A stretch of 64,000 bases of DNA from a virus (IMGVR_UViG_3300036966_000119:32001-96000); one strand, 5' to 3'; shown: positions 24,182 through 43,168, numbered from the stretch's first letter. Notes: a model not told the origin generated them from the letters alone. Numbers and translations are program-made.

Positions 24182-25516
24182 TCATACTTTTCTGATATTT
24201 GATTTGGCAATTGCTGTTGTCACATTCTTACCATCTGAAGATATAACAACCCTGTCACCGTTTACTTCAAGAACCCAGTATGTTGATACAAACTGAGTGA
24301 ACTTCTTGCTTGTTCCGTATACTATAGGATTGATAATCTTTACCTTATCACCCTTCTTGACATCAGGTGTCTTATTAACAACCCAACCAAGACCACTCTT
24401 GAGTTTGCCGTATGTAACACCGTTGATCACTTTGTCTTCCACTATTGTGAATACACCTGTTGAACCAACAGTACCATTTGTAGCACCACCGGCAGTGATA
24501 AACACAAGATCAGTTGACTTCAAAGATACTCTATATTCTTTGAATGGTTCTGGCTTATTAGACTTCTCTTCAACAGCAGTGACCAGTGTCAAATACTTGG
24601 TGTTTATTGGAGACTGGATATTTCTGTTCTTGGCTTCATTAAGACCAACAACTGCTCTGTCGTTTGATATCGTAGAAATATACCAGTTTTCACGTTTTAC
24701 CCATTCAGGTATTCCGCCTCCGTTGTAATATACTGCATCAGAATTGATCTTAACCAAATCACCAACTTTGAATGTTGTGTTGGTTTTTGGTTTGGTTATT
24801 TCGAGTATAACCCATCCTGCACCACTCTTGAGTTTACCATACTTGGTATCACCAACAGTCTTTTCCTCAACGATTGTAAACTTGTTTGATACAGATATAT
24901 CACCAACACGTTTACCACCGGGAGCATCATAGATGTTTGTTCCGGCTGAAAGTGTAACAATTTTTCCTTCAACCTTTGGTGTGTCTTGTTCTGTTGATGA
25001 ATTCAGTAAAGCATTTACCTTATCACACAGATCCTGGGTATGTGCTTTCATCCAAGGTCCTGGACAACATGTTTCATTGAACATGTAATGATATGTGAGA
25101 GAACCGTCTGAGTTTCCTGTGAAGTATAACTTCTTGATGCCGTTTCTCTTGCATATATCAGCACAAAGCTTTATGAGTGAATTGTATGCGGCTGTTCCAA
25201 TAGGCCAACCTGAAGCATCACCATATGCGGAGTTTGATACTTCAATGGTGATAGCACGGTTATCGTTCCATGGTGATGAAGAACACCATGATCTATCCTG
25301 TTCTGGACAGAATAAACCTATACGACCATCGTTACCAATCGCATAGTTTGAAGACATCTGTCTACCAGGATTAGCAACGAGAGCACCAAACTGCTCAACC
25401 GACATTATACCTGCCATGTGATGAACAGTTATTTTTGTTATAGGCTGATTACGAGGTGAATTTCTATTGGGTGAAATTCTTGTGTAAGTAGCCAATGGAG
25501 AATTAGTATATGCCAT
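24182..25516 (-). CDS. Endolysin: N-acetylmuramoyl-L-alanine amidase (Amidase_2) with SH3-like wall-binding repeats
   Basis: ITVHHMA, SSNYAIG, AITIEV, H....TCCPG. Repeats FTIVE..YGKLKSG.GWV x2 and KVGDLVKI/KKGDKVKI x2. Confidence 0.92.
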   Translation of the reverse strand: MAYTNSPLATYTRISPNRNSPRNQPITKITVHHMAGIMSVEQFGALVANPGRQMSSNYAIGNDGRIGLFCPEQDRSWCSSSPWNDNRAITIEVSNSAYGDASGWPIGTAAYNSLIKLCADICKRNGIKKLYFTGNSDGSLTYHYMFNETCCPGPWMKAHTQDLCDKVNALLNSSTEQDTPKVEGKIVTLSAGTNIYDAPGGKRVGDISVSNKFTIVEEKTVGDTKYGKLKSGAGWVILEITKPKTNTTFKVGDLVKINSDAVYYNGGGIPEWVKRENWYISTISNDRAVVGLNEAKNRNIQSPINTKYLTLVTAVEEKSNKPEPFKEYRVSLKSTDLVFITAGGATNGTVGSTGVFTIVEDKVINGVTYGKLKSGLGWVVNKTPDVKKGDKVKIINPIVYGTSKKFTQFVSTYWVLEVNGDRVVISSDGKNVTTAIAKSNIRKV

Positions 25517-25535
25517 AACAATACCTCTCAATGAA

Positions 25536-25616
25536 TTATTCGTCCTCTCCTTTACCGTTGGAGAGTTCCTTGTTTGTTTCTTCTTCTAATGTGATCTCTT
25601 TCTCCTTGTCGTCCAT
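25536..25616 (-). CDS. 26-aa acidic micro-ORF upstream of the endolysin (not in ORF track)
   Basis: TAATG coupling to the upstream gene; MDDKEKEITLEEETNKELSNGKGEDE. Confidence 0.5.
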   Translation of the reverse strand: MDDKEKEITLEEETNKELSNGKGEDE

Positions 25617-26809
25617 TATTCATCATCCTCCTTACTATCGTTGTCAGAGCCGCCCTTACGAGCTTCCTCTTTCTTACGTTTATATTCAGCCTTAGCATCC
25701 TCTTTATGTTTCTTCTTGATATCCTTCATCTTACCGCGGATTTCTTTATCAGAAACATTCTTGATAGCTTCACGTCTGAGACGCTGTAGATAATCTTCAT
25801 CAGATTCACCATTCTTCTGAGGATTGTTCTTTCTAACTTCGTCTGTGATATATGTGTCAACTGCTTCAAGAGTATCTTCTTCAGATTGTTTCGCTGCTTC
25901 TTTTGCAGCACCACCGAGATTGAAGATGTTCTTTGCAAAATCAACGAACACTGAAACTGAACCAACAGCTCCTGTGATAATTGCATTAAGCTTTGTCATC
26001 TTTCCGGTGAGTTCTGTTGTATTCTTAAGAGCTTCTTGTACCTTTGGATTTTCTTTATCCTTGGCCATATCACGCATCCTAAGCTTTTCAGCCATTTTCT
26101 CAACACCACCAGAGATGAGTGTGAGTTCTCCTGTAAGAGACGTAATATGTTTCAAAGCATCACCCAATGCTTCAAAACCTCCCTCGAATATGTCACTTGT
26201 TGTGACATCTTTGTTGCCGTGTATAAGTTTATCGATATCGTCGATAAATGAACGAATCTTTGAAGGATTCTCATAATCAAATTCTTTCTCAATTCTGTGA
26301 TATAAATTCAGGGTAGAATTTGTGAGGACCATGAGGTATGTTGTTGTTGCAATGACACTCTTTGAATCCTTCTTAAACTTTATCTTGCCGGTCTTTTCAT
26401 CAATATAACATTCAGCCTTGCCATCGAATTCCTTATTGATTTCTTTGACCTTGGCCTCTTTGTCTTTTTCTTTGTTAAGTTTCTTACCAGCTTCCTTGAT
26501 CTTGTCACCAATGTCGGCATCTTTAAACTTTTTCTTGAGGACGTCAACAAGAGCTTTGATAAGACGAGGTATAAACATTAAAACAGTAACAAGTTTGTTA
26601 CTGTCTTTCTTACCCTCTTTCTTTACCTTATCAAGGACCTGTCCTTCCTGGAATATTGAATCATATTGATCGACATCACCGTCATAGTTTTCCATGATCA
26701 TTGAATATTTTTCAAAGTCAGCTATCATAGCTTCCATAACGGCTATCTCTGAATCCATACAAGATTCATCTATAGAGTCGATAGACTTTAAAACTTCATC
26801 ACGAATCAA
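25616..26809 (-). CDS. Internal head protein, paralog family
   Basis: RBS GGAGGT, TTG start. Propeptide IRDEVL...IFQEG, then the LMFIPRL amphipathic helix. Confidence 0.7.
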   Translation of the reverse strand: MIRDEVLKSIDSIDESCMDSEIAVMEAMIADFEKYSMIMENYDGDVDQYDSIFQEGQVLDKVKKEGKKDSNKLVTVLMFIPRLIKALVDVLKKKFKDADIGDKIKEAGKKLNKEKDKEAKVKEINKEFDGKAECYIDEKTGKIKFKKDSKSVIATTTYLMVLTNSTLNLYHRIEKEFDYENPSKIRSFIDDIDKLIHGNKDVTTSDIFEGGFEALGDALKHITSLTGELTLISGGVEKMAEKLRMRDMAKDKENPKVQEALKNTTELTGKMTKLNAIITGAVGSVSVFVDFAKNIFNLGGAAKEAAKQSEEDTLEAVDTYITDEVRKNNPQKNGESDEDYLQRLRREAIKNVSDKEIRGKMKDIKKKHKEDAKAEYKRKKEEARKGGSDNDSKEDDE

Positions 26810-26837
26810 AATAAAAACCTCCAATCTTAAATAATAT

Positions 26838-26879: not shown

Positions 26880-28160
26880 TCATGCTTTCTTTTTCTTCGG
26901 AACAGCCTTATTCATTTCTTTCTTCTCTTTTCTGCTGAGATCAGATCTTGTCTCTTTATCTCCTCCGAAAAGACCCTTATCTGCAAGAGCATGTCTCTTC
27001 TTACCCGAGCTATCTTTCTGGTTCCAAAGAACGTCGCCGCGTTCATCAGAATTCTTGGCAACATCGACATTGATATCCATCTCATCGATTCTTTGTTGCA
27101 TATACTTGATTTTTTCTTCAAGATCAAGAATCTCTTCACGCTTCTTATCAGCATTCTTCTTGTCAGCCTTTGCAGTCTTATACTGCTGCTTGAGAGATTT
27201 AAGCTTGTTCTTCATCTCTCGAGTTTCCTGGCTGTCGTTCTGAAGCTCGATATCTTCCTCAGTGATTTCACCCTTCTTGAACTTACGATACAAAGGACCA
27301 CCGAAGACATATAATGCTTTTGAAATGATATTAAGACCAAAGGTCACACTCATGATATGTTTTGAACTGTTGGATATTTTGTCAAGGAGTTTCTTTGCAG
27401 AAGCCTGTTTTTCAACATTCTTACCATTCTCGAAATCTTCTCTCATCTTCTTTTCAAGAAGCATTGAGAGTTCAGATGTGAGACCACGAACACCCATTGA
27501 TGCTTTGTAGCCATCTGTGTAGAGTTCATAAAGTGTATCGACAGAGCAGTAGAATGTTTCTGAGTCAAGATCTTTCTTTCCCCTGAGGACGTCTGCAAGC
27601 TCTTTTACCATAGCATCATATTGTGTTTCACCACCCTTAAGTCTTGTTATAAATTTACTGAATAAAGATGGGAATGATGATATGATATATATTGAATTTC
27701 TTATGTGCTTCAGACCACGTTTAAGGACGAACTCTTTCTTGTTTGGATCAAAACCAAGATTGTCTTCTGTTGCTTTCTCAACCATTCCAGAAGCTGATGT
27801 CAGCTGTTGTGCATTTGCCGAAGCAATAACGTTCTTTGCAAGTTCGGAATTTTTAGCAATATCAGCCTCGTTGTTCTTTTTGAACAAGGAAGTTATTGCA
27901 TTAAAGATTCCCTGGAAGAGACGTGGTATGAATGCGATTAATTTCATTAATCCATTTTCAATTTTACCTTTACCGGTAGCTGTATCCCATACCTGTCCTT
28001 CCTGATAGATGTAATAATCATCTTCTGCATTATCCATCATCACAGAAATCTTTTCATATTCCTGAATGACAGAACAGAACACAGCCAGAATGGATTGATC
28101 AACACTTTCGTTTATGAGGTCTAAAGAACTTAAAACCTCATCACGAATTTCTTCATTCAT
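26880..28160 (-). CDS. Internal head protein, paralog family
   Basis: IRDEVL...IYQEG, then LIAFIPRL. Confidence 0.7.
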   Translation of the reverse strand: MNEEIRDEVLSSLDLINESVDQSILAVFCSVIQEYEKISVMMDNAEDDYYIYQEGQVWDTATGKGKIENGLMKLIAFIPRLFQGIFNAITSLFKKNNEADIAKNSELAKNVIASANAQQLTSASGMVEKATEDNLGFDPNKKEFVLKRGLKHIRNSIYIISSFPSLFSKFITRLKGGETQYDAMVKELADVLRGKKDLDSETFYCSVDTLYELYTDGYKASMGVRGLTSELSMLLEKKMREDFENGKNVEKQASAKKLLDKISNSSKHIMSVTFGLNIISKALYVFGGPLYRKFKKGEITEEDIELQNDSQETREMKNKLKSLKQQYKTAKADKKNADKKREEILDLEEKIKYMQQRIDEMDINVDVAKNSDERGDVLWNQKDSSGKKRHALADKGLFGGDKETRSDLSRKEKKEMNKAVPKKKKA

Positions 28161-28176
28161 TTACAGCACCTCCTCA

Positions 28177-30447
28177 TTAGAATATTTCTTCATTATCATT
28201 GACCCACTGCTGGAATGACTCAGTAAGAGTTACATTGTTATCCTTGATTATATCCTCAAGGTGTTTATCAAGATTCTCTGCTTCCTTGGGATCAAATGTA
28301 GTTTTGTTGTAAATTGTGTCAATGTTTGCATGGTTAACATTTGAGAAGTTATCCACAATCCACTGACAATATTTCTTGACCTGTGGTTCAAGATTCTTCT
28401 GCTCAAGAAGCTGTTTAGCAACCTTAACACCTGCATGTGTTCTCTCAAGATCTGTTGGATATTTTGAATAGATTGCCTTGGCGAAATCTCCTTCAAGTTT
28501 TGCCAGTTCTGTCAGCTTATCAGTTGAGAAGTCATTAGCAACATACTTATTCTTTGAAGGGCCTACGAAGAAGAACTTAGGAAGCTTATACATTGCTGCA
28601 AAGAGATCACAGTAATACTCTTCATAGAGTTTTGCACTACCATATTTCTTCATCATCTCTATTTCATCGAGGTCTACCGTGAGCATGCCGATACCCATTA
28701 TAGCACCGGCACCAGCTGCAAGACCACCAAAGAGAGCAAGACCACTACCACCGAGACAAGCTGTAAGTACACCGGCCGCAGTTATTACTGCAGGGAATAC
28801 ATACTTAGCCTTTGATGGTGTTGCTTTACTAATAGCTTTCTTGTAAGCCTTGATCATCTGGTCAGCATACTTGTCTGCATCTCCTACAGATCTCATTGCC
28901 TTTGGATTACCATCAACTGCAGCAAGAGTTGTGAGCTGTTTAACCATTCTCTTCTTTGCTGCCTTATTGATCAAATTATTACCAGACAATTCGTCGATTG
29001 TGTCAACATAATTTGTTATGATAACACGCTTCTCCTCAGGAGTCTTTGCAGCTGCTGCAAGATTCAGAGTCATTGCAAGAGACATACCTGCTGTCGCATT
29101 AGCATGTCTGAGAACAGATGCGATGTTGTGGAATATTTCATGACATAATGTAGAAACCATGTTCTGACCGAAAAGCTCTATATCATTAGGAGCAGAGCTT
29201 TCGAGATAATGGTTGTATATGAATATATCTACAGGAAGACCTCCAAGCTGGAATCCCTTAGATTTTGATATAGTCATCTTCTTCTTTATATCATTGAAAG
29301 TCTGTGTTGCCGCATTCTCATATCTACCTGGTTTTGTCTGGATGAATCTAAGATTGATTCTGCAATCAAACTGTTTGTTCAGACAGTCAATTGCTTTCTC
29401 AAAGTTAGGATCATGAACAAACTCGGTGAGGTTCATCTGCTTGGCATTCTCCTGGTTTTCACGAGCAGCGTTGAAGTAATCAACTGCTTTGAGAATTGCC
29501 TTGTTATCAAACTTCATATATTTGATATCAGATGTACGAACCTTTTTCTTCTTGTCATCATCTTCTGTCTTAGATTCCATTACAACAGAATCTATTGGCT
29601 TAACAAAGTCAAAGCCGTGTTTACGAAGAAGATCATAACCGAGGTGAGTTGTATTACCCATCTTTGAACACATATTGACATGATATGCAGATTCCTGGAT
29701 ATTCTCGGCGATATCATTTACCTCAGCATTTGAAGTAACATCTCCGGCAATATCATCAGCAGATGCATTCATATCAATTGCTTCTTCATCTTCATCGTTG
29801 AAGTATTCTTGTGGAGCATTACTACCTCCTGGGACATATGTGGGAATTGTATTAGAAGCACGGAGTTCTTCTACCTTTGCTATTGCAGCAGGTGTATTGG
29901 GCATATCAACTAAACCAGTATCATATGCCAGAATCTCTCCACCTTCCTCATCCTCATATCTACCAATGCACTTACCCTTTGCAGGATTGGCATTCTTTAT
30001 AGCAGTATCAATACGACCCTGTTCAATGTTTCCCATCTGGTAATCATTGAGCTTATCATCGATTCTCTGAGAGATGTAATCAAGAACACCTCCAACAGCC
30101 TGAATGATTGGCTTAGTCTGATTCTTAGCTTCTATAGGAGGAGCAATGATATTATCGTTCTGGACTCTTATTCCTGTAGCATTGGGATCTGCGATAATGT
30201 TTGTTGATGGAATACCATACATTGCACCAACACATTCAAGTGCAGTTATAAGATCTGCAGATTCGGACACAGCTTTCGCAACCTTCTGCTGTACCGCATT
30301 TGCTTTTGCCTTAACAGCAGCATCATTTGATGGTGTTGAAGGTGTTGAAGGTGTTGGCTGATTTGTCTGGATGGTTTTTGCTGCAGTAGATGGCTGACTT
30401 GTACCAGGTGTTGAATCTATTCCCAAAGCTTCCTGTATAGTTTTCAT
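28177..30447 (-). CDS. Virion membrane-type zinc metalloprotease (HExxH), paralog 1
   Basis: HEIFH, Gly/Ala-rich hydrophobic hairpin, EEYYCDLFAAMY, YPTDLER; domain flanked by VVMES and LTES. Confidence 0.7.
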   Translation of the reverse strand: MKTIQEALGIDSTPGTSQPSTAAKTIQTNQPTPSTPSTPSNDAAVKAKANAVQQKVAKAVSESADLITALECVGAMYGIPSTNIIADPNATGIRVQNDNIIAPPIEAKNQTKPIIQAVGGVLDYISQRIDDKLNDYQMGNIEQGRIDTAIKNANPAKGKCIGRYEDEEGGEILAYDTGLVDMPNTPAAIAKVEELRASNTIPTYVPGGSNAPQEYFNDEDEEAIDMNASADDIAGDVTSNAEVNDIAENIQESAYHVNMCSKMGNTTHLGYDLLRKHGFDFVKPIDSVVMESKTEDDDKKKKVRTSDIKYMKFDNKAILKAVDYFNAARENQENAKQMNLTEFVHDPNFEKAIDCLNKQFDCRINLRFIQTKPGRYENAATQTFNDIKKKMTISKSKGFQLGGLPVDIFIYNHYLESSAPNDIELFGQNMVSTLCHEIFHNIASVLRHANATAGMSLAMTLNLAAAAKTPEEKRVIITNYVDTIDELSGNNLINKAAKKRMVKQLTTLAAVDGNPKAMRSVGDADKYADQMIKAYKKAISKATPSKAKYVFPAVITAAGVLTACLGGSGLALFGGLAAGAGAIMGIGMLTVDLDEIEMMKKYGSAKLYEEYYCDLFAAMYKLPKFFFVGPSKNKYVANDFSTDKLTELAKLEGDFAKAIYSKYPTDLERTHAGVKVAKQLLEQKNLEPQVKKYCQWIVDNFSNVNHANIDTIYNKTTFDPKEAENLDKHLEDIIKDNNVTLTESFQQWVNDNEEIF

Positions 30448-30466
30448 ATAATATGACCTCCTTTCA

Positions 30467-32935
30467 TCATGCATTTATAGGCGCAGGTCCACCGTTGTTT
30501 GCGGGAGCCTGTGCCTGTTCAGCATTTGTATTAGTTGTATTATTTGCAGCAGGCTGTTGTTGTGTATTATTCTGCTGCTTGTAGCCTATAATGATATCTC
30601 TGTAGAGAGAATATCTGCTTGCGAAAAATTTAGAACCGATAGACACAAGTATCTGTCTGTCGTAAATGCTTGAAACTGTTTCAACCATCTTTGATACTTC
30701 GTCACAACGTTTCTTCAGAGCATCGTTGTTTGACTGCTGTGCTTCAGCCATCTTTTCCTTGACAGCCTGACCGGCTTCTTCAGCAGTCTTTGCGAGACCT
30801 TCTGAAGCTTTCTTAACAAATTCTGTGCAATTCTTAAGATCGTTTACAAGCTTATCCCATTCCTTCTGCTCCATCTTTCCTGAGAAGTTCTTAATAGGTT
30901 CAGCTGTTCCTGTAAGGAAGTAATTAACGATTGCATCAGTTAACTGTGATGCATTTTTCTTAGGATCGTTTGTTGTAGTAGCATTAGCGTTCTTCTGGAT
31001 TGCAGCGGCTGTGTTATTATCGATACCAAGAAGTCTAAAGGACTCGTTTGTTGCATTGAATTCGTTTGAAGGATTCAGAAGATTAAGTACATCATTCTTT
31101 GACATACCCTTAGTGAAACGAGATGCATCTTTAGTATCAATACCATACATTGGAATATTTGTCAAGTTAGGAACGAATGTTCCATCGGCTATTGCCTTGC
31201 TGACACCCTGGTTGATCTGATCATTCTTATTAACCTCATCGATGTACTGTTTGTACTTCTTTTCGAAGTTACCTGAGAATTTAGCAAGCTGATTTTTAAT
31301 CCAGTCAAGAAGTTTGCTTATTGTATTAGAAACAACTCCCTGTTGTTTGTTATTATTATTACCATTCAGCTGCTGACCCTGAGCATTTGTAAATGTAACA
31401 CCAGACTTATTATTCGGATTATTATTGTTTGCAGGAGCATCAGCTTCCATGATGAATGATTCCATGCATACAAATCCTGGTGCAGCGGCATCGGGCATGT
31501 TGTCATCGTATGTGAATACTCGTGTATTATTGTAATACAGTCTGAGCATGTTTCTTGTCATGATCTCACCGAGTAATACGAGTATGTCTTTTGTGATATC
31601 ATAATTCTCGATTGGATTTCCATCCCTGTAATTATTGATAATACTCTTCATTGCTCCAGCAACACGAATGAGGTTGTTTGCAAGATCTTTGTTTGTCTTG
31701 AGGTCACATCCGCCGTATACACGATACAACATATCCAATGCATTTGTTATTGGATGAACCTTGTTGTTACCCATTGCATCACGACGATAGTTTCCATCAA
31801 GATAATTATTACCGAATGCGATTGTATCAAGCCAATCTACATTTGTTTTGAAGCAGTCATTCTCACGAGGAGTTGCATCTGCTCTGTCGGAATTTCTCTT
31901 GTAATACTCATCATGATCGAAATCATGATTCATACCAACAAACATCTTTGCGATGAAAGAGGCGTCGTACGGAGACACATTATCGTCAGCATACTTACCA
32001 ACGAGGAATCCGATTGGTGAACGAGGATCCTTCATGATGAAATGCATTGCATCATGTGTATCCTTGAAGTCAGGTGTAACATCCTGAAGAGCTATGTCTC
32101 TCATATTACAATTGAAAGGCAATCTGTTACGAACCATGTATGTTGTCGTATTTACGAGACAGCATTCAGTAACAAGATCTTCTGAGTTTTCATCCTTCTT
32201 CTTAACGGTGTAATCAACTGATGGCTTTATGTAACCAATCAGCTGAAGAGCAGCAATTGTATTGAGTGTACATACAAACAGAAGGAATTCCTCGAGGAAT
32301 GTTCCAAATGTAAGTCTGTAGGAACTATTCTCGATTATCATGGTTCTGCTCTTCTGGAGGACATCAGGAAGAGCCTTAACGATTTTCTTCATGTTTGCTG
32401 CAAAATGTATATCATTCAGCTTCTTGATATCATCCTTTGCATACTCGATTCTCTTAACCATCTCTCCGTGTGAGTAGAGAGCAACTTCTCCGATATCATT
32501 TTCACAAATATGTGCAAGATCCTGGAGAGTGCATTCCTTTGGGTTTACGTAATTATGTGCATCATCCAATACAGCAGAGGTTTCAAATGCAGGGCACTTA
32601 TTATCCTCAATGAAACGCTTTACTGATGCAACTGTAAACAATTCAACATCAGCAATTCTGTCATGGAAGATTCCTTTCTCAAGTCCTTTAATAAGATTTG
32701 ATACGTATGTTGACACATCATTCGGAGTAACGTATCTAAGCTTATAAGTACAGCTACAAACACCGTACTCGGATTTGAGAGCTTTACCAGTTGCAGCCTT
32801 ATTAAGAGCTGTCAATGAATCCGCATATACGTCGATCAGTGCATCAAATGATTTATTGAAAGAATCACTGAAAGAAAACTTCTTTGATGATCCAGACGGC
32901 GAATCCACTACTACAAGAGCTTTTTTAGTAGCCAT
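30467..32935 (-). CDS. Large virion/head protein with internal maturation sites
   Basis: RBS AAGGAG; internal LVTEC and CMESFIMEA motifs followed by an N/Q-rich linker and an amphipathic helix. Confidence 0.6.
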   Translation of the reverse strand: MATKKALVVVDSPSGSSKKFSFSDSFNKSFDALIDVYADSLTALNKAATGKALKSEYGVCSCTYKLRYVTPNDVSTYVSNLIKGLEKGIFHDRIADVELFTVASVKRFIEDNKCPAFETSAVLDDAHNYVNPKECTLQDLAHICENDIGEVALYSHGEMVKRIEYAKDDIKKLNDIHFAANMKKIVKALPDVLQKSRTMIIENSSYRLTFGTFLEEFLLFVCTLNTIAALQLIGYIKPSVDYTVKKKDENSEDLVTECCLVNTTTYMVRNRLPFNCNMRDIALQDVTPDFKDTHDAMHFIMKDPRSPIGFLVGKYADDNVSPYDASFIAKMFVGMNHDFDHDEYYKRNSDRADATPRENDCFKTNVDWLDTIAFGNNYLDGNYRRDAMGNNKVHPITNALDMLYRVYGGCDLKTNKDLANNLIRVAGAMKSIINNYRDGNPIENYDITKDILVLLGEIMTRNMLRLYYNNTRVFTYDDNMPDAAAPGFVCMESFIMEADAPANNNNPNNKSGVTFTNAQGQQLNGNNNNKQQGVVSNTISKLLDWIKNQLAKFSGNFEKKYKQYIDEVNKNDQINQGVSKAIADGTFVPNLTNIPMYGIDTKDASRFTKGMSKNDVLNLLNPSNEFNATNESFRLLGIDNNTAAAIQKNANATTTNDPKKNASQLTDAIVNYFLTGTAEPIKNFSGKMEQKEWDKLVNDLKNCTEFVKKASEGLAKTAEEAGQAVKEKMAEAQQSNNDALKKRCDEVSKMVETVSSIYDRQILVSIGSKFFASRYSLYRDIIIGYKQQNNTQQQPAANNTTNTNAEQAQAPANNGGPAPINA

Positions 32936-32986
32936 GTCAAATCTCCTTTTCATTAAAATATTTTAACCCCTTTATTCTCAGGGAAT

Positions 32987-32998
32987 TATCATTCCGTT
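32987..32998 (-). promoter_or_regulatory. Candidate late promoter
   Basis: AACGGAATGATA at the head of the leftward virion operon. Confidence 0.35.
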
Positions 32999-33079
32999 TA
33001 CGAACATTTTATATATTGCGATAATTTTCTATGCTACCGGATTTAATGATATATAATTCCTATTATTTCACTTTTTCAC

Positions 33080-33149
33080 ATATATATTATTAATGTGAGA
33101 AAAGAAAGAATAGGTCTTTCAAATCTCTTTCCAAATTTAAAGGAGGAAT
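33080..33149 (+). repeat. 70-bp promoter-hairpin-RBS cassette, identical to 15163-15232
   Basis: Exact sequence match. Confidence 0.92.
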
Positions 33150-33153
33150 TAGT

Positions 33154-33348
33154 ATGACAAATAAGAAATTAACTAAGAAGGTTGTAAGATGGGAGAAGAA
33201 GCACCCTAACCTCACAGCTGCATGCGTTTATGTAACAGCCGGATCTTTTGTTCTCAGAGTAGTTAGCTCAATCATAGGTGGCGCGGTAGCGGCTAAGACG
33301 ATAAAGGAAGTTCGCAATGGTGTTAACGAGTCATTGATGACCTCGTAA
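33154..33348 (+). CDS. Small early membrane protein (likely extends to 33392 via a 1-nt indel)
   Basis: One hydrophobic segment; the -1 frame gives VIDDLVNDDEDVVDVKVEEN up to the terminator. Confidence 0.65.
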   Translation: MTNKKLTKKVVRWEKKHPNLTAACVYVTAGSFVLRVVSSIIGGAVAAKTIKEVRNGVNESLMTS

Positions 33349-33400
33349 ATGACGACGAAGATGTCGTTGACGTAAAAGTCGAGGAGAATTAAATAAAGAG

Positions 33401-33435
33401 AAATAACCCGCATAAGCGGGTTATTTTTTTTTTTT
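33401..33435 (+). terminator. Rho-independent terminator
   Basis: AAATAACCCGC-ATAA-GCGGGTTATTT plus a long T run. Confidence 0.85.
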
Positions 33436-33451
33436 GATTTTTCCATACTGG

Positions 33452-33463
33452 AACCGAAATCTA
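33452..33463 (+). promoter_or_regulatory. Candidate late promoter
   Basis: AACCGAAATCTA at the head of the rightward virion operon. Confidence 0.35.
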
Positions 33464-33498
33464 AAATACTTATAATAAGTATAATATAAAAGAAAGGA

Positions 33499-34251
33499 GT
33501 GTTGGTATTGAGAAATACACGTTGTCCTTTTTGTCCGAAGATATTTAATGACAAACATAGATTCTGTAGACACATACAACGAATGCACAATGATCAGGTA
33601 CCAGATGATTGTGAAGCATTAGAGTGGGCCTACTCATTACTCGTTGGAAAACCGACAGGTCGTTTATGTGTTCAATGTCATAAGAATCCGGTTCATTTCA
33701 ATAAAGAGACTCTCAAATATGAACGTTATTGTTCTGATGCTTGTAAGACAGCATATGCAAATGATTTCCATAATAAAAGAATGGTTGATAAGTATGGAGT
33801 ACCTCATTTGTTAAATAATGCGGATATGCAACGTAAGATGATTTTTAACCATGCTCAAGCAAGAGATTTTGTTTGGGATGATAAACATACATTCAGAATC
33901 ATTGGTTCATATGAAGAAGATTTCTTGAATCATTTAAAATCATTGGACTGGTCCCCAAATGATGTCATATGCCCATCACCAAATAATTATTGGTACAAAT
34001 GGAAGGATGGATCAACCCATCTCTATATACCAGACTTCTACATTCCATCTTTGTCATTGGAAGTAGAAATCAAAGAATCTGACAATACACATCCTCGAAT
34101 GGAACATTCTCGTGAAATCGAATATTTAAAGGATGCTCGTCTTAAGTACGAAACTCAGAAGACAGGTATTCATTATATAAAAATAGTCGATAAGAATTAT
34201 GAGGAATTCGATCGAGTATATGTTATGTCCGATAATAATAAACCTGAATAA
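33499..34251 (+). CDS. Zn-finger plus TnsA-like PD-(D/E)xK nuclease (T4 gp4 head-completion-like)
   Basis: CPFC..H...H, CVQC...YCSDAC, GSYE, YIPDFYIPSLSLEVEIK. Confidence 0.7.
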   Translation: MLVLRNTRCPFCPKIFNDKHRFCRHIQRMHNDQVPDDCEALEWAYSLLVGKPTGRLCVQCHKNPVHFNKETLKYERYCSDACKTAYANDFHNKRMVDKYGVPHLLNNADMQRKMIFNHAQARDFVWDDKHTFRIIGSYEEDFLNHLKSLDWSPNDVICPSPNNYWYKWKDGSTHLYIPDFYIPSLSLEVEIKESDNTHPRMEHSREIEYLKDARLKYETQKTGIHYIKIVDKNYEEFDRVYVMSDNNKPE

Positions 34252-34266
34252 AGGAGGTGTTTTATT

Positions 34267-35874
34267 TTGGATCTTACATTTATAAATGAATATGTTACTG
34301 AGTCAAATGAACTGGTATCGGATTCAATTGACATGATGTACGTTAAACAACAAGCAATCATGGAATTATCCGACGAACTTGATTTGTTGTCAAGGTATGA
34401 ATGTTTTCAGGAAGGTTATTCAAATCCTGCTTCTTCTCCGGAGCTTGATGTGTTTAAATTCGACAATAAGCATATCTTGAAAGCCATCAAATATTTCAAT
34501 AAAGCTTATGCAGAAATACCTTTCGACACAACAAACTTCGATGAAGTTAAAGCAAAACAAGAACGTGGCGAATTGAGTATCAAGGGTACGTTTGCTCCAG
34601 AAATAGAATACTCTCCTCAATTAATTCATCAGATAGAAACGATGTTCCGTAACCCAAATGGATATTTGGAGAAAGGTTTCCAGGAATTACAACAACAATT
34701 CGATTGTAAGTTTTCTATTTATATAAGTCAGAAGACAGGTACTGGAACAATCATTTCTAACTTTCCTACAAACCCGGGAAATCTAACGGTGTCTCGTTCT
34801 AAAGGATTCCAGCTTGGTGGTTTATCAATTACGATAAATCTCAACACGAAACAATTGTTGACAATGGTTCCTGCAAACAAAAAATTGTTTGGTCAATCAT
34901 TGACAGCTGTTTTGTTACATGAGATTTATCATAACATCGTACATATGATCGGCATTCGTAATAAAAAGCTTCATGATGAAATCAATACGACTGTTGCTAA
35001 TATGAAGAATGCTATTTCATTTGATTCAATAAAAGCACATGTATCTGCATTCATAAACAAATTCAAATCGTCATTTAATATAAATGATGCTGAGATGGAT
35101 GAAGAACGTGTTGCTCGAAGAATGTATGTATTATCTCAGATTCAAGATAACCCTGGTGCTGTAAAGAAGTTTGAAAACGATATAAAGAATAACGTTGATC
35201 AAACAAATACTGATGAAGAGATCGATAGATATATCAAAGGAATGAAACTTGTCAAGGATATGGTTATTATCAAAAGAGGAATGCGTGTTGTATCTGCAGC
35301 ATGTTGTATTCTTCTTGCTGGTCTGGGATTTGCATTTGGATCAACGGCTGCCATGGTTGGTGGTGTAGTTGGTATCGCAATCATGTCGTTATCGATGTTG
35401 AAGAAAAAGGTTCTTTCTTTGTTCGGTGTTTCTGTTCGTATTCAAGAAGAATACTTCTGTGATTTGTTCGCAAGTATGTACAAGCTACCAGTACATCTTT
35501 CATCATTCAATCGTCAGATAAAACTGAATCAGAAGAATGCAGAAAAGATGAGTGAAGTGAGACGCCTCGATCAAAAGATAAACAAGGGTCTCAAAGATCC
35601 ACATCCTTTGGATTTTGATCGTGAACTCACATCATACAAGGTAGCAAAACAAATTCTCAATTCAGGACAAAAACTCAAGAAAGCAGAAAGAGAATATCTA
35701 CAATACATTGTCAATCTGCATGAAGGTATTGAAGATATTAACAATCCTTATTCAAAGACTCAGTCAAAGAAACTTGATCCAGAAGCTGCACGTGATTTAC
35801 AACAGACACTCCGTGATTTTGTAAATAAGACCGGTGTAGCTGTTACGGAAAGTGGTGATGGATATGGCTCTTGA
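34267..35874 (+). CDS. Virion membrane-type zinc metalloprotease (HExxH), paralog 2
   Basis: HEIYH, TM hairpin, EEYFCDLFASMY, HPLDFDR. Shares KFDNK.ILKA..YFN and SKGFQLGGL with 28177-30447. Confidence 0.72.
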   Translation: MDLTFINEYVTESNELVSDSIDMMYVKQQAIMELSDELDLLSRYECFQEGYSNPASSPELDVFKFDNKHILKAIKYFNKAYAEIPFDTTNFDEVKAKQERGELSIKGTFAPEIEYSPQLIHQIETMFRNPNGYLEKGFQELQQQFDCKFSIYISQKTGTGTIISNFPTNPGNLTVSRSKGFQLGGLSITINLNTKQLLTMVPANKKLFGQSLTAVLLHEIYHNIVHMIGIRNKKLHDEINTTVANMKNAISFDSIKAHVSAFINKFKSSFNINDAEMDEERVARRMYVLSQIQDNPGAVKKFENDIKNNVDQTNTDEEIDRYIKGMKLVKDMVIIKRGMRVVSAACCILLAGLGFAFGSTAAMVGGVVGIAIMSLSMLKKKVLSLFGVSVRIQEEYFCDLFASMYKLPVHLSSFNRQIKLNQKNAEKMSEVRRLDQKINKGLKDPHPLDFDRELTSYKVAKQILNSGQKLKKAEREYLQYIVNLHEGIEDINNPYSKTQSKKLDPEAARDLQQTLRDFVNKTGVAVTESGDGYGS

Positions 35875-36343
35875 TACAAAAGGTATTACACTGGATGAGA
35901 TAAGAGGTAAATTCCCTCCATCATTCCAGACATTAAACTACGATGTCGTACTTGATTCAGATTCAATGTACAAACCAAGAGTTCTCTCTACGTTTGAATT
36001 GGGTGTGAACTCAATCTTGACATTGTTATTTATGAAACCAGGTCAGTATCCATCCATTCCTGATCTCGGTATAGACATAGAGTCTTATCTGTATGAATAT
36101 TCCGATGATCCAAAAATACCTGGTGAGATACGTAATAAGTTAATTGATCAATGTAACATCATCGATGTCATTGGTATCGACATTGATATTCGTTTTGATA
36201 AAACCGCAGAAGGATATGATGCATTGATAGTTGAATTAACTGGTACGGAGAGACTGGGTTATGGTAATGACTCGTCTCATATTATAATTGGTATATCGTA
36301 TGATAAACTCAATCGTTTATACGTACGAAAAGTTTCAATATAA
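35864..36343 (+). CDS. Baseplate wedge protein, gp25/GPW-like
   Basis: LLFMKPGQYPSIPDLGIDIESYLYE. Confidence 0.65.
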   Translation: MALDTKGITLDEIRGKFPPSFQTLNYDVVLDSDSMYKPRVLSTFELGVNSILTLLFMKPGQYPSIPDLGIDIESYLYEYSDDPKIPGEIRNKLIDQCNIIDVIGIDIDIRFDKTAEGYDALIVELTGTERLGYGNDSSHIIIGISYDKLNRLYVRKVSI

Positions 36344-36359: not shown

Positions 36360-37106
36360 ATGGCTACTGTACCAGAAAAACGAAAACGTATTGAAGAAAC
36401 AATCTACAAGACACTTCTTCTTATGGATCCTACCGGTATAAATGCAAACAAATATCGGAAGATGTTTCAAACAATGAATGATCTCAAATTCTCACAATGG
36501 ATAGATGCTTTTCTTAATGATGAGAAAAGTAACTTCCGTCTTGACATAGAAGAATTTGGCGATGGTTCAAGAACACTTAAATTCGAAAATGTTGAGAAAG
36601 CTGCAGACTTCCTCAAGATAAAACTTTTCGAGTATGTATATCTTCCACATGTGTCTTCAAATCCGAACCGACCCATAAGGACCAAACAGCCGGTTTTGGT
36701 AGGATGGCTTAATATTAAACGAACTCAACAGCTCGCTTCAAAGAAAACAGGTCTGGCTTTAAGCGATGATAATCGTGACGATATGACAGGTGCTGCTAAG
36801 GGTGAATCCAAAGGTGGTACAACAACAGGTATCGAAAACGAAGTTCTTGCTGGTGTTGGTGGAGATATTATTCTATCTGAGATATCCGGTGCTCGTGGCG
36901 ATAATGTGAAAGAATATGATAATATGCTTTCAGCCATCGCGGAGAATGGTTCTGTTAAATTGTCTGATATAAAGACAAATACATACGATAAACCTACATT
37001 ACTCGCTGCTAATATGTATTTCATGGCTATGGGCATTAAAACAGATCTCATATCTGAATCGTATTACAGTGTCGAAAAGGTTAAGCGTATCGTCGATGGA
37101 ACCTAA
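36360..37106 (+). CDS. rpoB: RNA polymerase beta subunit, C-terminal piece (probably virion RNAP)
   Basis: PVLVGWLNIKRTQQ..KK, TG..KG.SKGG...IE..VL, EISGARGD and AMGIKT align with the RpoB C-terminus; located in the virion operon. Confidence 0.8.
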   Translation: MATVPEKRKRIEETIYKTLLLMDPTGINANKYRKMFQTMNDLKFSQWIDAFLNDEKSNFRLDIEEFGDGSRTLKFENVEKAADFLKIKLFEYVYLPHVSSNPNRPIRTKQPVLVGWLNIKRTQQLASKKTGLALSDDNRDDMTGAAKGESKGGTTTGIENEVLAGVGGDIILSEISGARGDNVKEYDNMLSAIAENGSVKLSDIKTNTYDKPTLLAANMYFMAMGIKTDLISESYYSVEKVKRIVDGT

Positions 37107-38910: not shown

Positions 38911-40422
38911 ATGAATATTTCACAGTTAGATGAGGTTATTCTTGAATCAGAATATGAAGTCTTGAATAATTTATTGGATGCCTATGATAAGGCATACACC
39001 ATTATTGAAAATTATCAGGGTGACGATCTCAACGCATTTTCAATATTCCAAGAATCATCAATAGTTCAAGAAGCATCTTGGAAAGAGACAGAAAAACAGA
39101 AACTCGATAAGCCAGAATTTAAATTCCGTCAAAATAATGAAAAGACTGGAAAAAAGGAAAATATCCTCAAGAGTTTTATGAAGTTGATTCCAAGATTAAT
39201 TGAGCATGTCCAGGATCTTCATAGAAGAAAAATGGAGATGAAGAAACTTAAGCTTGTAACAGAACAAGCTAAGAAAATTGGTGTAGATGTTTCGAAAATG
39301 TCGCCAGGTGAAACTGAGTTATTTTATACCCTTATAAATCAGAATGTCCCAGCATCCGAGTTAAAGGAGATTCTCAGAAAAGAAAACTTTAAACACGATG
39401 TCCGAATGTGGCTTACCAAACAAGGTCTCAAAGTTGGTGGTGGTGCGATTGTTATTGGTGGAACAGCGTATGCCCTCAACAATAAAAAAGAACTTATCGA
39501 ATCAAAGATCTCTGACTTTAAAGGAGAGATAATGAAAAAGTTTGATGAGACAGTTCTTAGTGAGATAAGAGAGGCTGGTTCTAAAGCAGCTGATACTATA
39601 TCAAAGGCAGCCGATAAAGCTGCCGAAAAGATAGCCGATGCGGCAAAACGTGTTCAAGAAGTAATGAGAAAAGCTATTGAATTCATAAAGAAATTATATG
39701 ATGGAATTCGTAAGTTTTTCAATATTAACTTATTGAAATATGACCAAGTAACAGATGATGGAATATTATGTAAGATCGATGTCAAAGCAGGTACATTGTA
39801 TGTCACAATAGATCTCGATATGTGGAGTAGTTGGATTGATTTTGCACGAGATTTCATTGTTCAAGCAGCTGCTCTTATTGGACGCAAATTCACTGATGGA
39901 AAATTGGAGAAGAATACCAATGCAGAAGGAAGAGCAGTTAGATCTGGTGCAATATATGATTTCCAAAAAGAACATGATAAATCAAATGTTGTTACTAAAT
40001 ATACAATACATCCCGACGCCGAATCAGCAATAAACAAGTTTACTGATAATATGAGAAAACTGGCTGATGACAAAACCAAGAAGAAAAACGCGTATTCACC
40101 AATTTCTTCATTCTCTGAGAAAGCTGAAGCTCTCTCTGAGAAATTGACGAAAATGTGTCAAGCAGCAAAATCTTTGTCGGCTGTATATGAATCCAGGTTA
40201 AAGGACGATACCCGTGATGATAGATGGGTCGATACGGAGAAGCTTGTATCTGAAAAAATAAGAGGTATTTTAGACACCCAGGTTACACTCACAAATGGCA
40301 TATCTGCAGTTAACGAATACATTACAACGGTCGCAGAAATGTCTGATAGTTTGAGTATTGTTGCATCTGGTAGTGAACCTCCTTCAGACACAAGTATCAC
40401 TGACAAAAAAGAAGACGAATAA
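38911..40422 (+). CDS. Internal head protein, paralog family
   Basis: VILESEYEV...IFQES/IVQEA, then KLIPRL; Gly-rich hydrophobic segment. Confidence 0.7.
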   Translation: MNISQLDEVILESEYEVLNNLLDAYDKAYTIIENYQGDDLNAFSIFQESSIVQEASWKETEKQKLDKPEFKFRQNNEKTGKKENILKSFMKLIPRLIEHVQDLHRRKMEMKKLKLVTEQAKKIGVDVSKMSPGETELFYTLINQNVPASELKEILRKENFKHDVRMWLTKQGLKVGGGAIVIGGTAYALNNKKELIESKISDFKGEIMKKFDETVLSEIREAGSKAADTISKAADKAAEKIADAAKRVQEVMRKAIEFIKKLYDGIRKFFNINLLKYDQVTDDGILCKIDVKAGTLYVTIDLDMWSSWIDFARDFIVQAAALIGRKFTDGKLEKNTNAEGRAVRSGAIYDFQKEHDKSNVVTKYTIHPDAESAINKFTDNMRKLADDKTKKKNAYSPISSFSEKAEALSEKLTKMCQAAKSLSAVYESRLKDDTRDDRWVDTEKLVSEKIRGILDTQVTLTNGISAVNEYITTVAEMSDSLSIVASGSEPPSDTSITDKKEDE

Positions 40423-40469
40423 ATAAACATCCGTTTTGTTTATTTATATATGAAAGGAAAGTGAATCTA

Positions 40470-41993
40470 ATGAACACAACTATACGTAATGAAGTCATTG
40501 CTTCTATTGACGCTATGAACGGAGTAGTTCAGGAATCAGAAATGGAAGTTCTCTGTTCTCTCGTGGATCAGATGGATAAAGCATCTGTAATTCTTGAGAG
40601 TTATAATGGTAATGAACTTGAAATGTTCGCTATATACCAAGAGGCTGATGGTGCCGTACAGTCAGGTGATCCTTCAGGTGAGGTAGATTCTGGTGCAAAG
40701 AAAGACAGTATCCTTATGAAGATACTGATGTTCATTCCAAATCTGCTCAAGAAGATCTGGGTATTTGTAAAACAAGCATGGAATGGTGAAATCGTTTCTG
40801 CTGCACAAGCAGCAGTTGACAAGGCTGAGGCTTTCCCAGATAAAGCAAAGTCTTTATTTGATAAGATAATGGGTAAGGATGAGTCATGGATCAAGGAACA
40901 CGCAGCAGAACTCGGTATTGCTGGAGGTACTACACTTGCAGCTGTTCTCAGCTTTGTTGGATTTATGAATAAAGATAAACTCACTGATATTGTCAAGGGT
41001 TGGCTTAAGTCAATTAAGTCATTCTTCTCAAAATTGTCTGATGATATTATCGACACAAGGATTATCTTCGAACTGACCGTTGGTAATAAGATCAAGACCA
41101 ATGTTGGTATTAAGAAGATATCCGAGGCATTTAAATCAGTACCTGAGTTTATCAAGAAAACTCGTGAATTCAACATATATAAGAAGACAGGCATCAATGT
41201 ATCTGTTATTGAGACAGAAGCAGCTGCTCTTGAAAATGATGTGAATAAATTCACAACCGCTGATATTATTTTACCAGAACCGATAGAGCTTGACGCTAAA
41301 GAAGTAATCAATGAGCTCAATGAATTCGGACAGGTGTTTGATAGCGTTAAGAATGATGGTACCGATATATCAGGCATAACATTGTCTGATGAAGCAAAAC
41401 AAAAACTTCTTGAAGCAGAGAAGAATGATGCTCTTCGTAGCAAACTGAATTCCGTGATCACTAAGTTCAACGGTGTTATGAAGAAAATAAGCGAATTCTT
41501 CGTAGGAACATATAATGCAGTCAAGAAGCTTCTTGGTAAAATCGCAGGCATATTCAAGAAAGAGGATGAGATTTCTGCTCAACTCAAGAGTGAATATAGT
41601 ACTTCTGATACAGAAGAAACTGGTGAAGCCAGCGGCGACGAACCTTCAACAGAAGATTTTGTATCACCAGATAAGGAATCATCTGAATCCACAGAATCTG
41701 AGCCGAAGAATGCATCAGGTGAAACTGGTCAGACCAATGTTGGTGAACCTTCTAAGGGTATGAGCTACACAGCTAATCAGGTTAAGACTTTCCTGAATAA
41801 CGTTGGTAAGAACGACGTTGAGGTTCCTGAGAAGCCAGAAGGAAATAAAATGATCCGTTACAAAGACGGCGATCCTCTTACTTTCGTTTACCATCCTGAT
41901 GATGGTCAGTATTACTATGAATCAGCTGAGGAAGATGTTAGCGACGACGATGACGTTGTAGTTGAATCTCATACAGGTTACTATTTCAAGTAA
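40470..41993 (+). CDS. Internal head protein, paralog family
   Basis: IRNEVI...VQESEMEV...IYQEA, then LMFIPNL; hydrophobic segment LGIAGGTTLAAVLSFVGF. Confidence 0.7.
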   Translation: MNTTIRNEVIASIDAMNGVVQESEMEVLCSLVDQMDKASVILESYNGNELEMFAIYQEADGAVQSGDPSGEVDSGAKKDSILMKILMFIPNLLKKIWVFVKQAWNGEIVSAAQAAVDKAEAFPDKAKSLFDKIMGKDESWIKEHAAELGIAGGTTLAAVLSFVGFMNKDKLTDIVKGWLKSIKSFFSKLSDDIIDTRIIFELTVGNKIKTNVGIKKISEAFKSVPEFIKKTREFNIYKKTGINVSVIETEAAALENDVNKFTTADIILPEPIELDAKEVINELNEFGQVFDSVKNDGTDISGITLSDEAKQKLLEAEKNDALRSKLNSVITKFNGVMKKISEFFVGTYNAVKKLLGKIAGIFKKEDEISAQLKSEYSTSDTEETGEASGDEPSTEDFVSPDKESSESTESEPKNASGETGQTNVGEPSKGMSYTANQVKTFLNNVGKNDVEVPEKPEGNKMIRYKDGDPLTFVYHPDDGQYYYESAEEDVSDDDDVVVESHTGYYFK

Positions 41994-42038: not shown

Positions 42039-42057
42039 AATGAAAGGATTGAGATTA

Positions 42058-43143: not shown

Positions 43144-43168
43144 AATATAATGAAAGGAAGATTTGTAT

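Follow-up and report, generated by a model that had tools for sequence, protein, structure and literature searches.

Two paralogous genes at positions 28177-35874 of a 64,000-nucleotide stretch of viral DNA (hereafter the window; bases 32001-96000 of the 172.6-kb IMG/VR virus record IMGVR_UViG_3300036966_000119, estimated completeness 64%) very probably encode M48-like zincins. Profile comparison places their products, termed here the long and the short paralog, as a divergent, duplicated branch of a head-associated zincin family, found in jumbo phages that encode RNA polymerases, that includes phiKZ gp84, SPN3US gp45, g051 of Bacillus phage AR9 and g204 of Yersinia phage phiR1-37. The explanation that best fits the evidence as a whole, and that is held here with modest confidence, is that both are head-packaged, propeptide-trimmed M48-like zincins acting after ejection. 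As to its individual parts, packaging in the head with removal of the propeptide is considered likely, and action at the host membrane after ejection is proposed tentatively.

The two proteins share 141 of 491 aligned positions (29% identity; BLASTP, E 2e-47) between residues 316-753 of the long and 59-529 of the short paralog, which confirms their paralogy as claimed in the original prediction, made from the sequence alone. The motifs quoted there were all found, namely KFDNK.ILKA..YFN, SKGFQLGGL, HEIFH/HEIYH, EEYYCDLFAAMY/EEYFCDLFASMY, YPTDLER/HPLDFDR, VVMES/LTES and CFQEG/VTES. No third copy was detected in the whole 172.6-kb record. A family profile search of 1.84 billion representatives returned 140 proteins at E <= 0.001, and since the homology is conserved across ~140 cluster representatives, the likeness of the paralogs is not due to chance. 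An alignment of 32 members, drawn from 89 metagenomic homologs and numbered after the short paralog, showed H218, E219, H222, E395, D399, F401, A402, Y405, P408, P447 and R452 to be invariant and E49, T527 and E528 to be at least 90% conserved. Enlarging the set to 67 members leaves H, E, H, E, D, Y, P and R without variation. HExxH, a hydrophobic peak, ExxxDxFA and [HY]Px4R follow one another in this order in 32/32 members, and E395 would be the third zinc ligand. The TTG start of the short paralog is backed by homologs that open with MDL.. at the equivalent position; its ESM Atlas entry begins only at residue 24, read as M (window 34267-34338), so some gene callers miss this start.

The connection with M48 runs through a bridging group of seven proteins (417-500 aa), taken from the tail of the 140-protein list, which carry the motifs GFK[FY]DK, LHEIGHNF, DEKFADxFATMYGYGP and DEHPx4R. 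PF01435 matches all seven at E <= 0.1, and in three cases the score lies above its cut-off of 20.3 bits, at 21.6, 22.5 and 22.2 bits; the same scan of seven closer family members gave no match. Profile comparison (hhalign) aligns the window family with the bridging group over 331 columns with a probability of 98.6% (E 9.6e-16), pairing HExxH, ExxxD and HPx4R. Furthermore, the best PDB sequence match of the bridge profile is Ste24p (4il3_A, E 0.0028), where HEIGH falls on HEIGH and EkfaDsFa on EYQADAYA, and within its own genome the short paralog is found by this profile at E 0.0076. The best Pfam score obtained with the paralogs themselves was to the SprT-like family, on the HExxH helix (E 0.046), and the ESM Atlas yielded a lead only for the short paralog, a viral cluster with PF01435 in 11% of its members (score 0.88). 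The paralogs are too divergent for the curated model and are therefore not filed as Pfam M48 members.

In HtpX and Ste24, a transmembrane hairpin lies between HExxH and the Glu ligand, with an HPx4R-like motif downstream, and cellular M48 enzymes with this hairpin layout are membrane proteases. The phage paralogs resemble cellular M48 enzymes (Ste24/ZMPSTE24, HtpX, BepA) in HExxH, the downstream E-x3-D helix and the HPx4R-like motif, and resemble HtpX and Ste24 in the helical hairpin between the two metal-binding helices. However, they differ from the cellular enzymes in a ~115-residue helical insert after the HExxH helix, in having no further candidate transmembrane segments, and in being phage-encoded with a propeptide of capsid-targeting type in front.

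An AlphaFold model of residues 131-475 of the short paralog (predicted local distance difference test (pLDDT) 89.1, predicted template modelling score 0.85) was compared with 48,161 chains using VIA-align. The first-ranked match was ZMPSTE24 (6bh8_A; Z 7.7, 154 aligned residues, root-mean-square deviation (rmsd) 6.9), and the next M48 enzymes were BepA (6sar_A; Z 6.7, 125 aligned, rmsd 4.2), Ste24p (4il3_B; Z 6.7) and an M48-type protein (3c37_B; Z 5.7). Every row spanning the model from residue 1 to near its end was a zincin-type zinc-dependent hydrolase, the others being YbeY and its homolog AQ_1354, selecase, jannalysin, M13 enzymes, SprT and MATCAP. A Foldseek search of the domain model against BFVD (predicted viral structures) ranked the AR9 'Zincin protease' first (E 1.1e-3, probability 1.00) and a virion structural protein of Klebsiella phage Miami second, with M48- and BepA-labelled phage proteins further down. 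With the full 535-residue model, M48 and M13 rows reached only Z 5.3-5.8 in VIA-align, below nuclear-receptor rows. A kinship with nuclear receptors was rejected, these rows being read as a common helical arrangement on the insert. The fold evidence supports the M48-like assignment of the model but does not carry it, because three points speak on the other side: all Z scores are moderate (< 8, a range that the tool itself calls common among unrelated models), nuclear-receptor domains score equally high on the helical insert, and Foldseek with the full model found no match in the PDB at E <= 0.001. Thus, the M48/HtpX-type ligand layout foreseen in the original prediction stands on the transitive profile links together with moderate fold matches. 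The structural comparison suggested there placed M48 enzymes as the top full-length rows (Z 6.7-7.7), with the reservations just given.

Relationships with proteins of named jumbo phages were also traced through the bridging group. One of its members (P0215) matched, in tblastn, AR9 g051 ('zincin protease', E 2e-11), PBS1 gene 241 and phiR1-37 g204 ('phage structural protein', E 9e-4); the AR9 g051 record already notes pfam01435 M48 and SprT-like. The bridge profile, run over five named genomes, recovered phiKZ gp84 in two pieces in order (E 3.3e-7 and 1.1e-4; record note 'structural head protein'), SPN3US gp45 (E 9.4e-6 and 8.7e-5; annotated 'putative virion structural protein 1'), AR9 g051, phiR1-37 g204 and a second AR9 copy; the match in Staphylococcus phage S6 was weak (E 0.008), with three stop codons in its second piece. 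The second AR9 zincin is shorter (KU878088, positions 92927-93424; ORF (open reading frame) of 344 aa, and a 323-aa 'Zincin protease' in BFVD), and the zincin duplication is therefore not confined to the clade of the window. An alignment of the gp84 family (32 of 167 gp84 relatives) matched the bridging group over 347 columns with a probability of 99.65% (E 3.8e-25), and H, E, H, E and D are invariant in this family as well. A tblastn search with phiR1-37 g204 returned only g204 itself.

Comparison with these relatives revealed both common and distinct features. Like phiKZ gp84 and SPN3US gp45 (410-450 aa, against a ~480-aa domain here), the paralogs show HExxH followed by ExxxDxFA, a hydrophobic stretch and an N-terminal propeptide, predicted here, that ends in x-x-E, and the phages that encode them are likewise jumbo phages in which multisubunit RNA polymerases occur together with an S80-type prohead protease. 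In contrast, the propeptide comprises ~50 residues here (short paralog) and 10-20 there, the gene is duplicated here with one copy bearing a ~300-residue extension, and the hydrophobic stretch precedes ExxxD here and follows it there. AR9 g051 and phiR1-37 g204 have the same set of motifs as the window family, in the forms GF.[FY].K, LHEIGHxF, EKF[AC]DxFA and DPHPx4R, and AR9 likewise has two copies; however, both belong to the bridging subfamily and their hydrophobic peaks are lower (1.16 and 1.62 against 1.66-2.53 here).

Hydropathy analysis (Kyte-Doolittle, 19-residue windows (KD19), >= 1.6) revealed one long hydrophobic stretch of ~45 residues per paralog, at residues 558-600 of the long and 332-379 of the short protein, and no further hydrophobic segment in either. 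The predicted hydrophobic hairpin was thus recovered in both paralogs, and the peak lies between HExxH and ExxxD in 32/32 members of the window family, never after ExxxD. In gp84-type proteins the peak lies after ExxxD in 24/28 and between the motifs in 1/28 (eight rows without both motifs by pattern were dropped), and the bridging group is mixed in this respect. The superfamily thus keeps a hydrophobic stretch. Given its differing position, it may have arisen more than once and is maybe not one conserved element.

Several results weigh against the kinship and the membrane-related interpretation set out above. Neither paralog gave anything above threshold with Pfam and PHROGs. PF01435 did not match either protein at E <= 1, so that the Pfam cut-off was not reached, and gave no signal when the whole record was scanned in six frames at E <= 10 (control positive in 13/14 genomes). 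Searched against PDB sequences, the family profile gave no meaningful match; the one result, an odorant receptor (E 0.0046), aligned with the hydrophobic part. Compared directly, the window and gp84 families are not significantly similar (probability 16%, E 0.0015), and the single sequences of gp84 and gp45 reach a probability of 1-2% and those of AR9 g051 and phiR1-37 g204 28-33% against the window family; the link to gp84 and gp45 is therefore a transitive one. AR9 g051 has no 'virion protein' label, though neighbouring AR9 genes have one. Finally, relative to ExxxD the hydrophobic stretch is placed on one side in the window family and on the other in the gp84 family, and no lipid is known inside such capsids.

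Evidence for packaging comes from the short paralog's N-terminus, a ~50-residue segment that ends at C-F-Q-E↓G (arrows mark putative cleavage points). Five proteins of the head module share an N-terminal segment of ~55 residues ending in phi-Q-E (phi, hydrophobic residue), and 20 short-paralog N-termini aligned with these five propeptides (hhalign) over 49 columns with a probability of 95.5% (E 1.4e-8) and with the QE end in register. In the model, the site falls in a low-confidence linker (pLDDT < 50 at residues 48-58). The 133 ORFs of the record (53,879 aa) contain 30 sites of the motif phi-Q-E-[SGA], where 200 shuffles gave 6.0 +/- 2.3 (at most 13); this is a five-fold enrichment, and 17/30 sites lie in 12 adjacent genes (25616-52734) that make up 12% of the residues, mostly 45-70 residues from the N-terminus. 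Among them are a site in the capsid protein (LVQE↓S, residue 123) and one in the prohead protease (FVQE↓A, residue 20); the protease also carries SIHQE↓S near residue 208, a possible self-cleavage site. The S80-type prohead protease at 43163-44017 is presumed to be the processing enzyme of the head proteins, and a phi-Q-E specificity of this enzyme in the clade can reasonably be inferred. Another motif, [LIVM][TS]E[SGA], was dropped, as its sites (0.37 per 1000 residues, ~20 in total) were scattered and unclustered in head-module genes.

Processing of this kind has been described in related phages. The SPN3US protease gp245 cleaves after A-x-E, often A-Q-E, and gp45 is present in virions and purified heads, is cleaved by the prohead protease at ASE-20 and is listed as a 48.2-kDa mature protein, 'Head, unknown function' (PMC10052503). 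Its 20-residue propeptide was likened by the authors to the capsid-targeting sequences of T4 (PMC5694885), and the gp84 family has an S-x-E context whose E10 is conserved to at least 90%. An N-terminal propeptide common to head-internal proteins and cut after Glu by the prohead protease is likewise known for the T4 internal proteins and Alt and for the SPN3US ejection proteins gp53 and gp54 (PMC7411985, PMC10052503), although those cargoes are not metalloproteases and the SPN3US motif is A-x-E, unlike phi-Q-E here (PMC10052503). The propeptide homology with five head proteins, the phi-Q-E enrichment and the cleavage of gp45 at ASE-20 make it very likely that the N-terminal boundary site of the short paralog is a prohead-protease site. 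Across the family, 50/67 members have phi-x-E-[SGA] within 45 residues upstream of the domain, with Q at P2 in 37 of these 50. In addition, Cys occupies P4 of the short-paralog cleavage site in 17/20 members (counted by eye) and in 0/5 sister propeptides, which would fit a cysteine-switch latency of the propeptide.

The other boundaries of the domain are less clear, and three observations count against packaging as described. A hidden Markov model (HMM) of the five propeptides matches the short paralog marginally (domain E 0.013, the second-best non-training match among the 133 ORFs), the N-terminus of the long paralog is not significantly similar to the propeptide (E 0.39), and at the C-terminal site P2 is T instead of Q and P1' is, in some members, Y or F. 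A C-terminal site of phi-T-E-S type is present in 57/67 members, and the pLDDT of the model falls below 50 from residue 529; lying outside the enriched type and with a variable P1', it is therefore a possible but not a predicted point of cleavage. Of the maturation sites originally proposed on both sides of the shared domain, the N-terminal one has gained support and the C-terminal one is weaker.

Table 1. Positions of the two paralogs, their motifs and putative processing sites, and other features of the window (numbered from its first base).
Feature	Positions	Strand	Basis or remark
Long paralog, 765 aa: ~300-residue N-terminal extension and zincin domain	28177-30474	-	ORF translation, BLASTP, alignment
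Short paralog, 535 aa, TTG start: propeptide, M48-like zincin domain, short C-terminal tail	34267-35874	+	ORF translation, BLASTP, alignment
Short paralog, HEIYH, residues 218-222, putative zinc-binding and catalytic motif	34918-34932	+	Invariant in 32 and 67 sequences
Short paralog, E395-x3-D399 (EYFCD), putative third zinc ligand helix	35449-35463	+	Invariant in 32 and 67 sequences
Short paralog, HPLDFDR, residues 446-452, HPx4R motif	35602-35622	+	P447, R452 invariant
Long paralog, HEIFH, residues 445-449	29128-29142	-	Motif alignment
Long paralog, E619-x3-D623 (EYYCD)	28606-28620	-	Motif alignment
Long paralog, YPTDLER, residues 672-678	28441-28461	-	Motif alignment
Short paralog, hydrophobic Gly-rich helical hairpin, residues ~332-384	35260-35418	+	KD19 maximum 2.07; model helices 337-352, 367-384
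Long paralog, hydrophobic hairpin, residues 558-600	28675-28803	-	Kyte-Doolittle hydropathy
Short paralog, putative N-terminal ~50-residue propeptide, ending C-F-Q-E↓G (residues 47-50 = 34405-34416)	34267-34416	+	hhalign; E49 at least 90% conserved
Short paralog, V-T-E-S, residues 526-529, possible C-terminal processing site	35842-35853	+	T527, E528 at least 90% conserved
Long paralog, I-Q-E-S, residues 259-262, canonical phi-Q-E site	29689-29700	-	E261 kept in 11/12 long paralogs
Long paralog, V-M-E-S, residues 298-301, just upstream of shared domain	29572-29583	-	Relatives with IQES, VQES or VMES
Long paralog, L-T-E-S, residues 750-753	28216-28227	-	Motif alignment
Head-module protein, shared propeptide ..SIFQE↓G at residue 58	25616-26824	-	Motif and propeptide comparison
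Head-module protein, shared propeptide ..YIYQE↓G at residue 52	26880-28160	-	Motif and propeptide comparison
Head-module protein, shared propeptide ..SIFQE↓S at residue 46	38911-40422	+	Motif and propeptide comparison
Head-module protein, shared propeptide ..AIYQE↓A at residue 59	40461-41993	+	Motif and propeptide comparison
Head-module protein, shared propeptide ..TIVQE↓A at residue 53	42040-43143	+	Motif and propeptide comparison
Prohead protease, Peptidase S80 / phiKZ gp175 type	43163-44017	+	PF20034 E 4.6e-6, 26.4 bits against cut-off 23.4; phrog_3014 head maturation protease E 5.8e-13
Major capsid protein, 736 aa	48509-50719	+	phrog_20655 E 9.8e-9; LVQE↓S at residues 123-126 = predicted propeptide end
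Amidase_2 endolysin	24182-25531	-	Profile scans of window proteins

A mechanism can be proposed from these observations. Both paralogs would be active peptidases, M48-like gluzincins whose zinc would be bound by two ligands from HExxH and, as the third, by the Glu of ExxxD, with the Glu of HExxH as catalytic residue. The short paralog would be made late and enter the prohead by means of the ~50-residue N-terminal targeting propeptide that it has in common with five neighbouring internal head proteins. Cleavage after C-F-Q-E49 by the S80-type prohead protease would then release the propeptide, and a short C-terminal tail may be lost by cleavage after V-T-E528, leaving a mature enzyme of ~54 kDa that would be retained in the filled head. 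In the long paralog, the candidate cleavage points are I-Q-E261 and V-M-E300, of which one or both may be used, and less surely L-T-E752. After ejection with the DNA, both proteins would reside at the host cytoplasmic membrane, anchored by the hairpin, and cut substrates there. Action after ejection is favoured, at low confidence, on three grounds: the homologs are still present in mature heads, many proteins are ejected from such heads, and the hydrophobic segment would serve no obvious purpose in the capsid. A broader proposal would be that all jumbo phages carrying an RNA polymerase, with phiKZ, SPN3US, AR9 and the present clade among them, eject a propeptide-latent M48-type membrane protease, which is armed by the serine prohead protease, anchored by its hairpin at the entry site, and cuts membrane-bound host proteins (defence sensors, quality-control factors) or shapes the entry compartment; this generalisation is improbable at present.

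The main rival explanation is that the paralogs are second maturation peptidases, which act only inside the prohead to trim or degrade propeptides and scaffold fragments left by the serine prohead protease, with the hairpin serving for protein packing in the core and with no role after ejection. A maturation role was proposed by Iyer et al. (2021; PMC7824862) for a 'conserved, uncharacterized zincin-like metallopeptidase' of group 1 jumbo phages, which may or may not be the window family. In the same direction point the many long propeptides that need clearing in such heads (PMC10052503) and the location of the paralog genes in the head module beside the S80 protease. However, annotations and mass spectrometry place the homologs in mature virions and purified heads, where a purely morphogenetic enzyme would not have to remain, and a strongly hydrophobic 45-residue hairpin present in 32/32 members would be left unexplained, so that this explanation is judged rather unlikely.

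Two further explanations are less likely than the maturation role. The paralogs could be membrane proteases outside the virion, expressed late and anchored in the inner membrane, which process phage or host membrane proteins (e.g., lysis or assembly factors), the phi-x-E sites being incidental. The long paralog lies ~2.6 kb from the Amidase_2 endolysin gene on the same strand, cellular M48 enzymes of such layout are membrane proteases, and AR9 g051 bears no virion-protein mark. Nevertheless, the propeptide is homologous to those of head-module proteins and its boundary Glu is conserved, homologs are annotated or measured as head proteins, and the hairpin is the only hydrophobic segment, which leaves no N-terminal signal or anchor; a function of this kind is distinctly unlikely. 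It is very improbable that the paralogs are catalytically dead structural head proteins retaining the zincin fold. Activity has been shown for no member and SPN3US gp45 is listed with unknown function (PMC10052503), but despite an old duplication H, E, H, E and D are invariant in 67/67 diverse members, as they are in the gp84 family, and such invariance is typical of an active site under selection. Head-packaged, propeptide-trimmed zincins acting after ejection thus remain the explanation favoured here over these three.

The genomic setting is that of a jumbo phage. The traits of the phages that host the head zincin family are present, namely split multisubunit RNA polymerase genes (beta pieces at 5759-7660 and 36360-37106; phrog_2962 E 6.6e-61 and phrog_3233 E 1.2e-42) and a gp175/S80-type prohead protease, and the window also encodes a family B DNA polymerase, a gyrase A homolog and ThyX. 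The only named relatives of the capsid protein are major head precursors of Staphylococcus jumbo phages, with 21-22% identity (tblastn). Based on this gene content (RNA polymerase, S80 protease) and the remote named relatives of its capsid protein, the phage can be placed as an uncultivated, deeply branching relative of the jumbo phages of AR9/PBS1/S6 and phiKZ type. Among 50,697 phage records, no match was found to the long paralog (tblastn, E <= 1e-5) or to positions 28000-36000 (megablast).

The span of the paralogs also holds two unrelated genes, 30467-32953 (-) and 33499-34251 (+), and a divergent intergenic region (32954-33498) that separates the two gene blocks bearing the paralogs. Across 39 related loci on other contigs, neighbours are retained at 30467-32953 in 30/39, at 33499-34251 in 34/39 and at 35852-36343 in 34/39; the S80 protease is present in 17/39, and both paralogs occur on one contig in three cases. 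The gene at 33499-34251, directly upstream of the short paralog, is endonuclease-like (phrog_15137 E 2.3e-38; DUF7487; N-terminal C2H2 finger), and its retention is unusually stable for a homing-type endonuclease. BLAST of 35852-36343 and 30467-32953 against phiKZ gp85 and gp83 revealed no similarity, and the resemblance in gene order to phiKZ is therefore not backed by homology.

Other proteins of the module share features with the short paralog or with each other. The five propeptide proteins of the window have an amphipathic helix of the ..MFIPRL.. type after the shared segment, and proteins with the shared propeptide look like internal or ejection proteins of the clade. Outside the window, the propeptide HMM also finds the ORF at 154524-156242 (-), with E 6.5e-5; in this ORF, IIQE↓G lies at residue 44. 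The head protein 40461-41993 ends in ..VVVE↓SHTGYYFK and short-paralog relatives end in ..VTE↓SF......GGEYYGS, so a C-terminal tail with phi-x-E-S and an aromatic-rich end may be shared by this protein and the short paralog. Residues ~55-300 of the long paralog are conserved among long paralogs (e.g., SES.DLITALE.VGAMYGIP and GKV.GRY.D..G.EILVYDTG); in the ESM Atlas, residues 55-300 of this extension scored at most 0.78 (TM at most 0.29) and gave no family or fold lead. A long paralog from another contig (P0086) has a Cys-rich C-terminal extension past the L-T-E-S site with a match to PF03119 (zinc-finger type). The tape-measure-like protein (2752 aa, 54191-62449, +) includes an M23 peptidase domain at residues 1877-1965 and a very long hydrophobic region at ~1226-1395.

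Parts of this picture are already known: the enzyme nature from the AR9 annotation (and from Iyer et al., 2021; PMC7824862, if the proteins are the same), the head location from the phiKZ and phiR1-37 record notes and SPN3US mass spectrometry, and the processing from SPN3US, whose authors noted that most prohead-protease substrates are conserved in related giant phages (PMC10052503). In the literature searched, no statement linking gp45 or gp84 to an M48-like zincin was found, and 'metallo' is absent from the SPN3US proteomics papers searched (PMC10052503, PMC5694885). 'PHIKZ084' did not occur as a name in the literature searched, and the top match for 'gp84' alongside phiKZ was set aside, as it concerned gp84 of another phage. 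What is added here is, first, that the family reaches into a deeply branching uncultivated clade, in which an old duplication of the gene is seen. Further new elements are the position of the hairpin as in M48 enzymes, the ~50-residue propeptide common to several proteins, with its phi-Q-E motif, and the explicit tie, drawn from sequence comparison, of SPN3US gp45 and phiKZ gp84 to a putative M48-like zincin.

The predicted phi-Q-E specificity and the ~50-residue targeting propeptide would be useful for annotating the head proteome of this clade. Furthermore, a conserved, processed head protein of jumbo phages would gain a concrete and testable function, that of a zinc peptidase which may be either a second maturation enzyme or an injected membrane protease.

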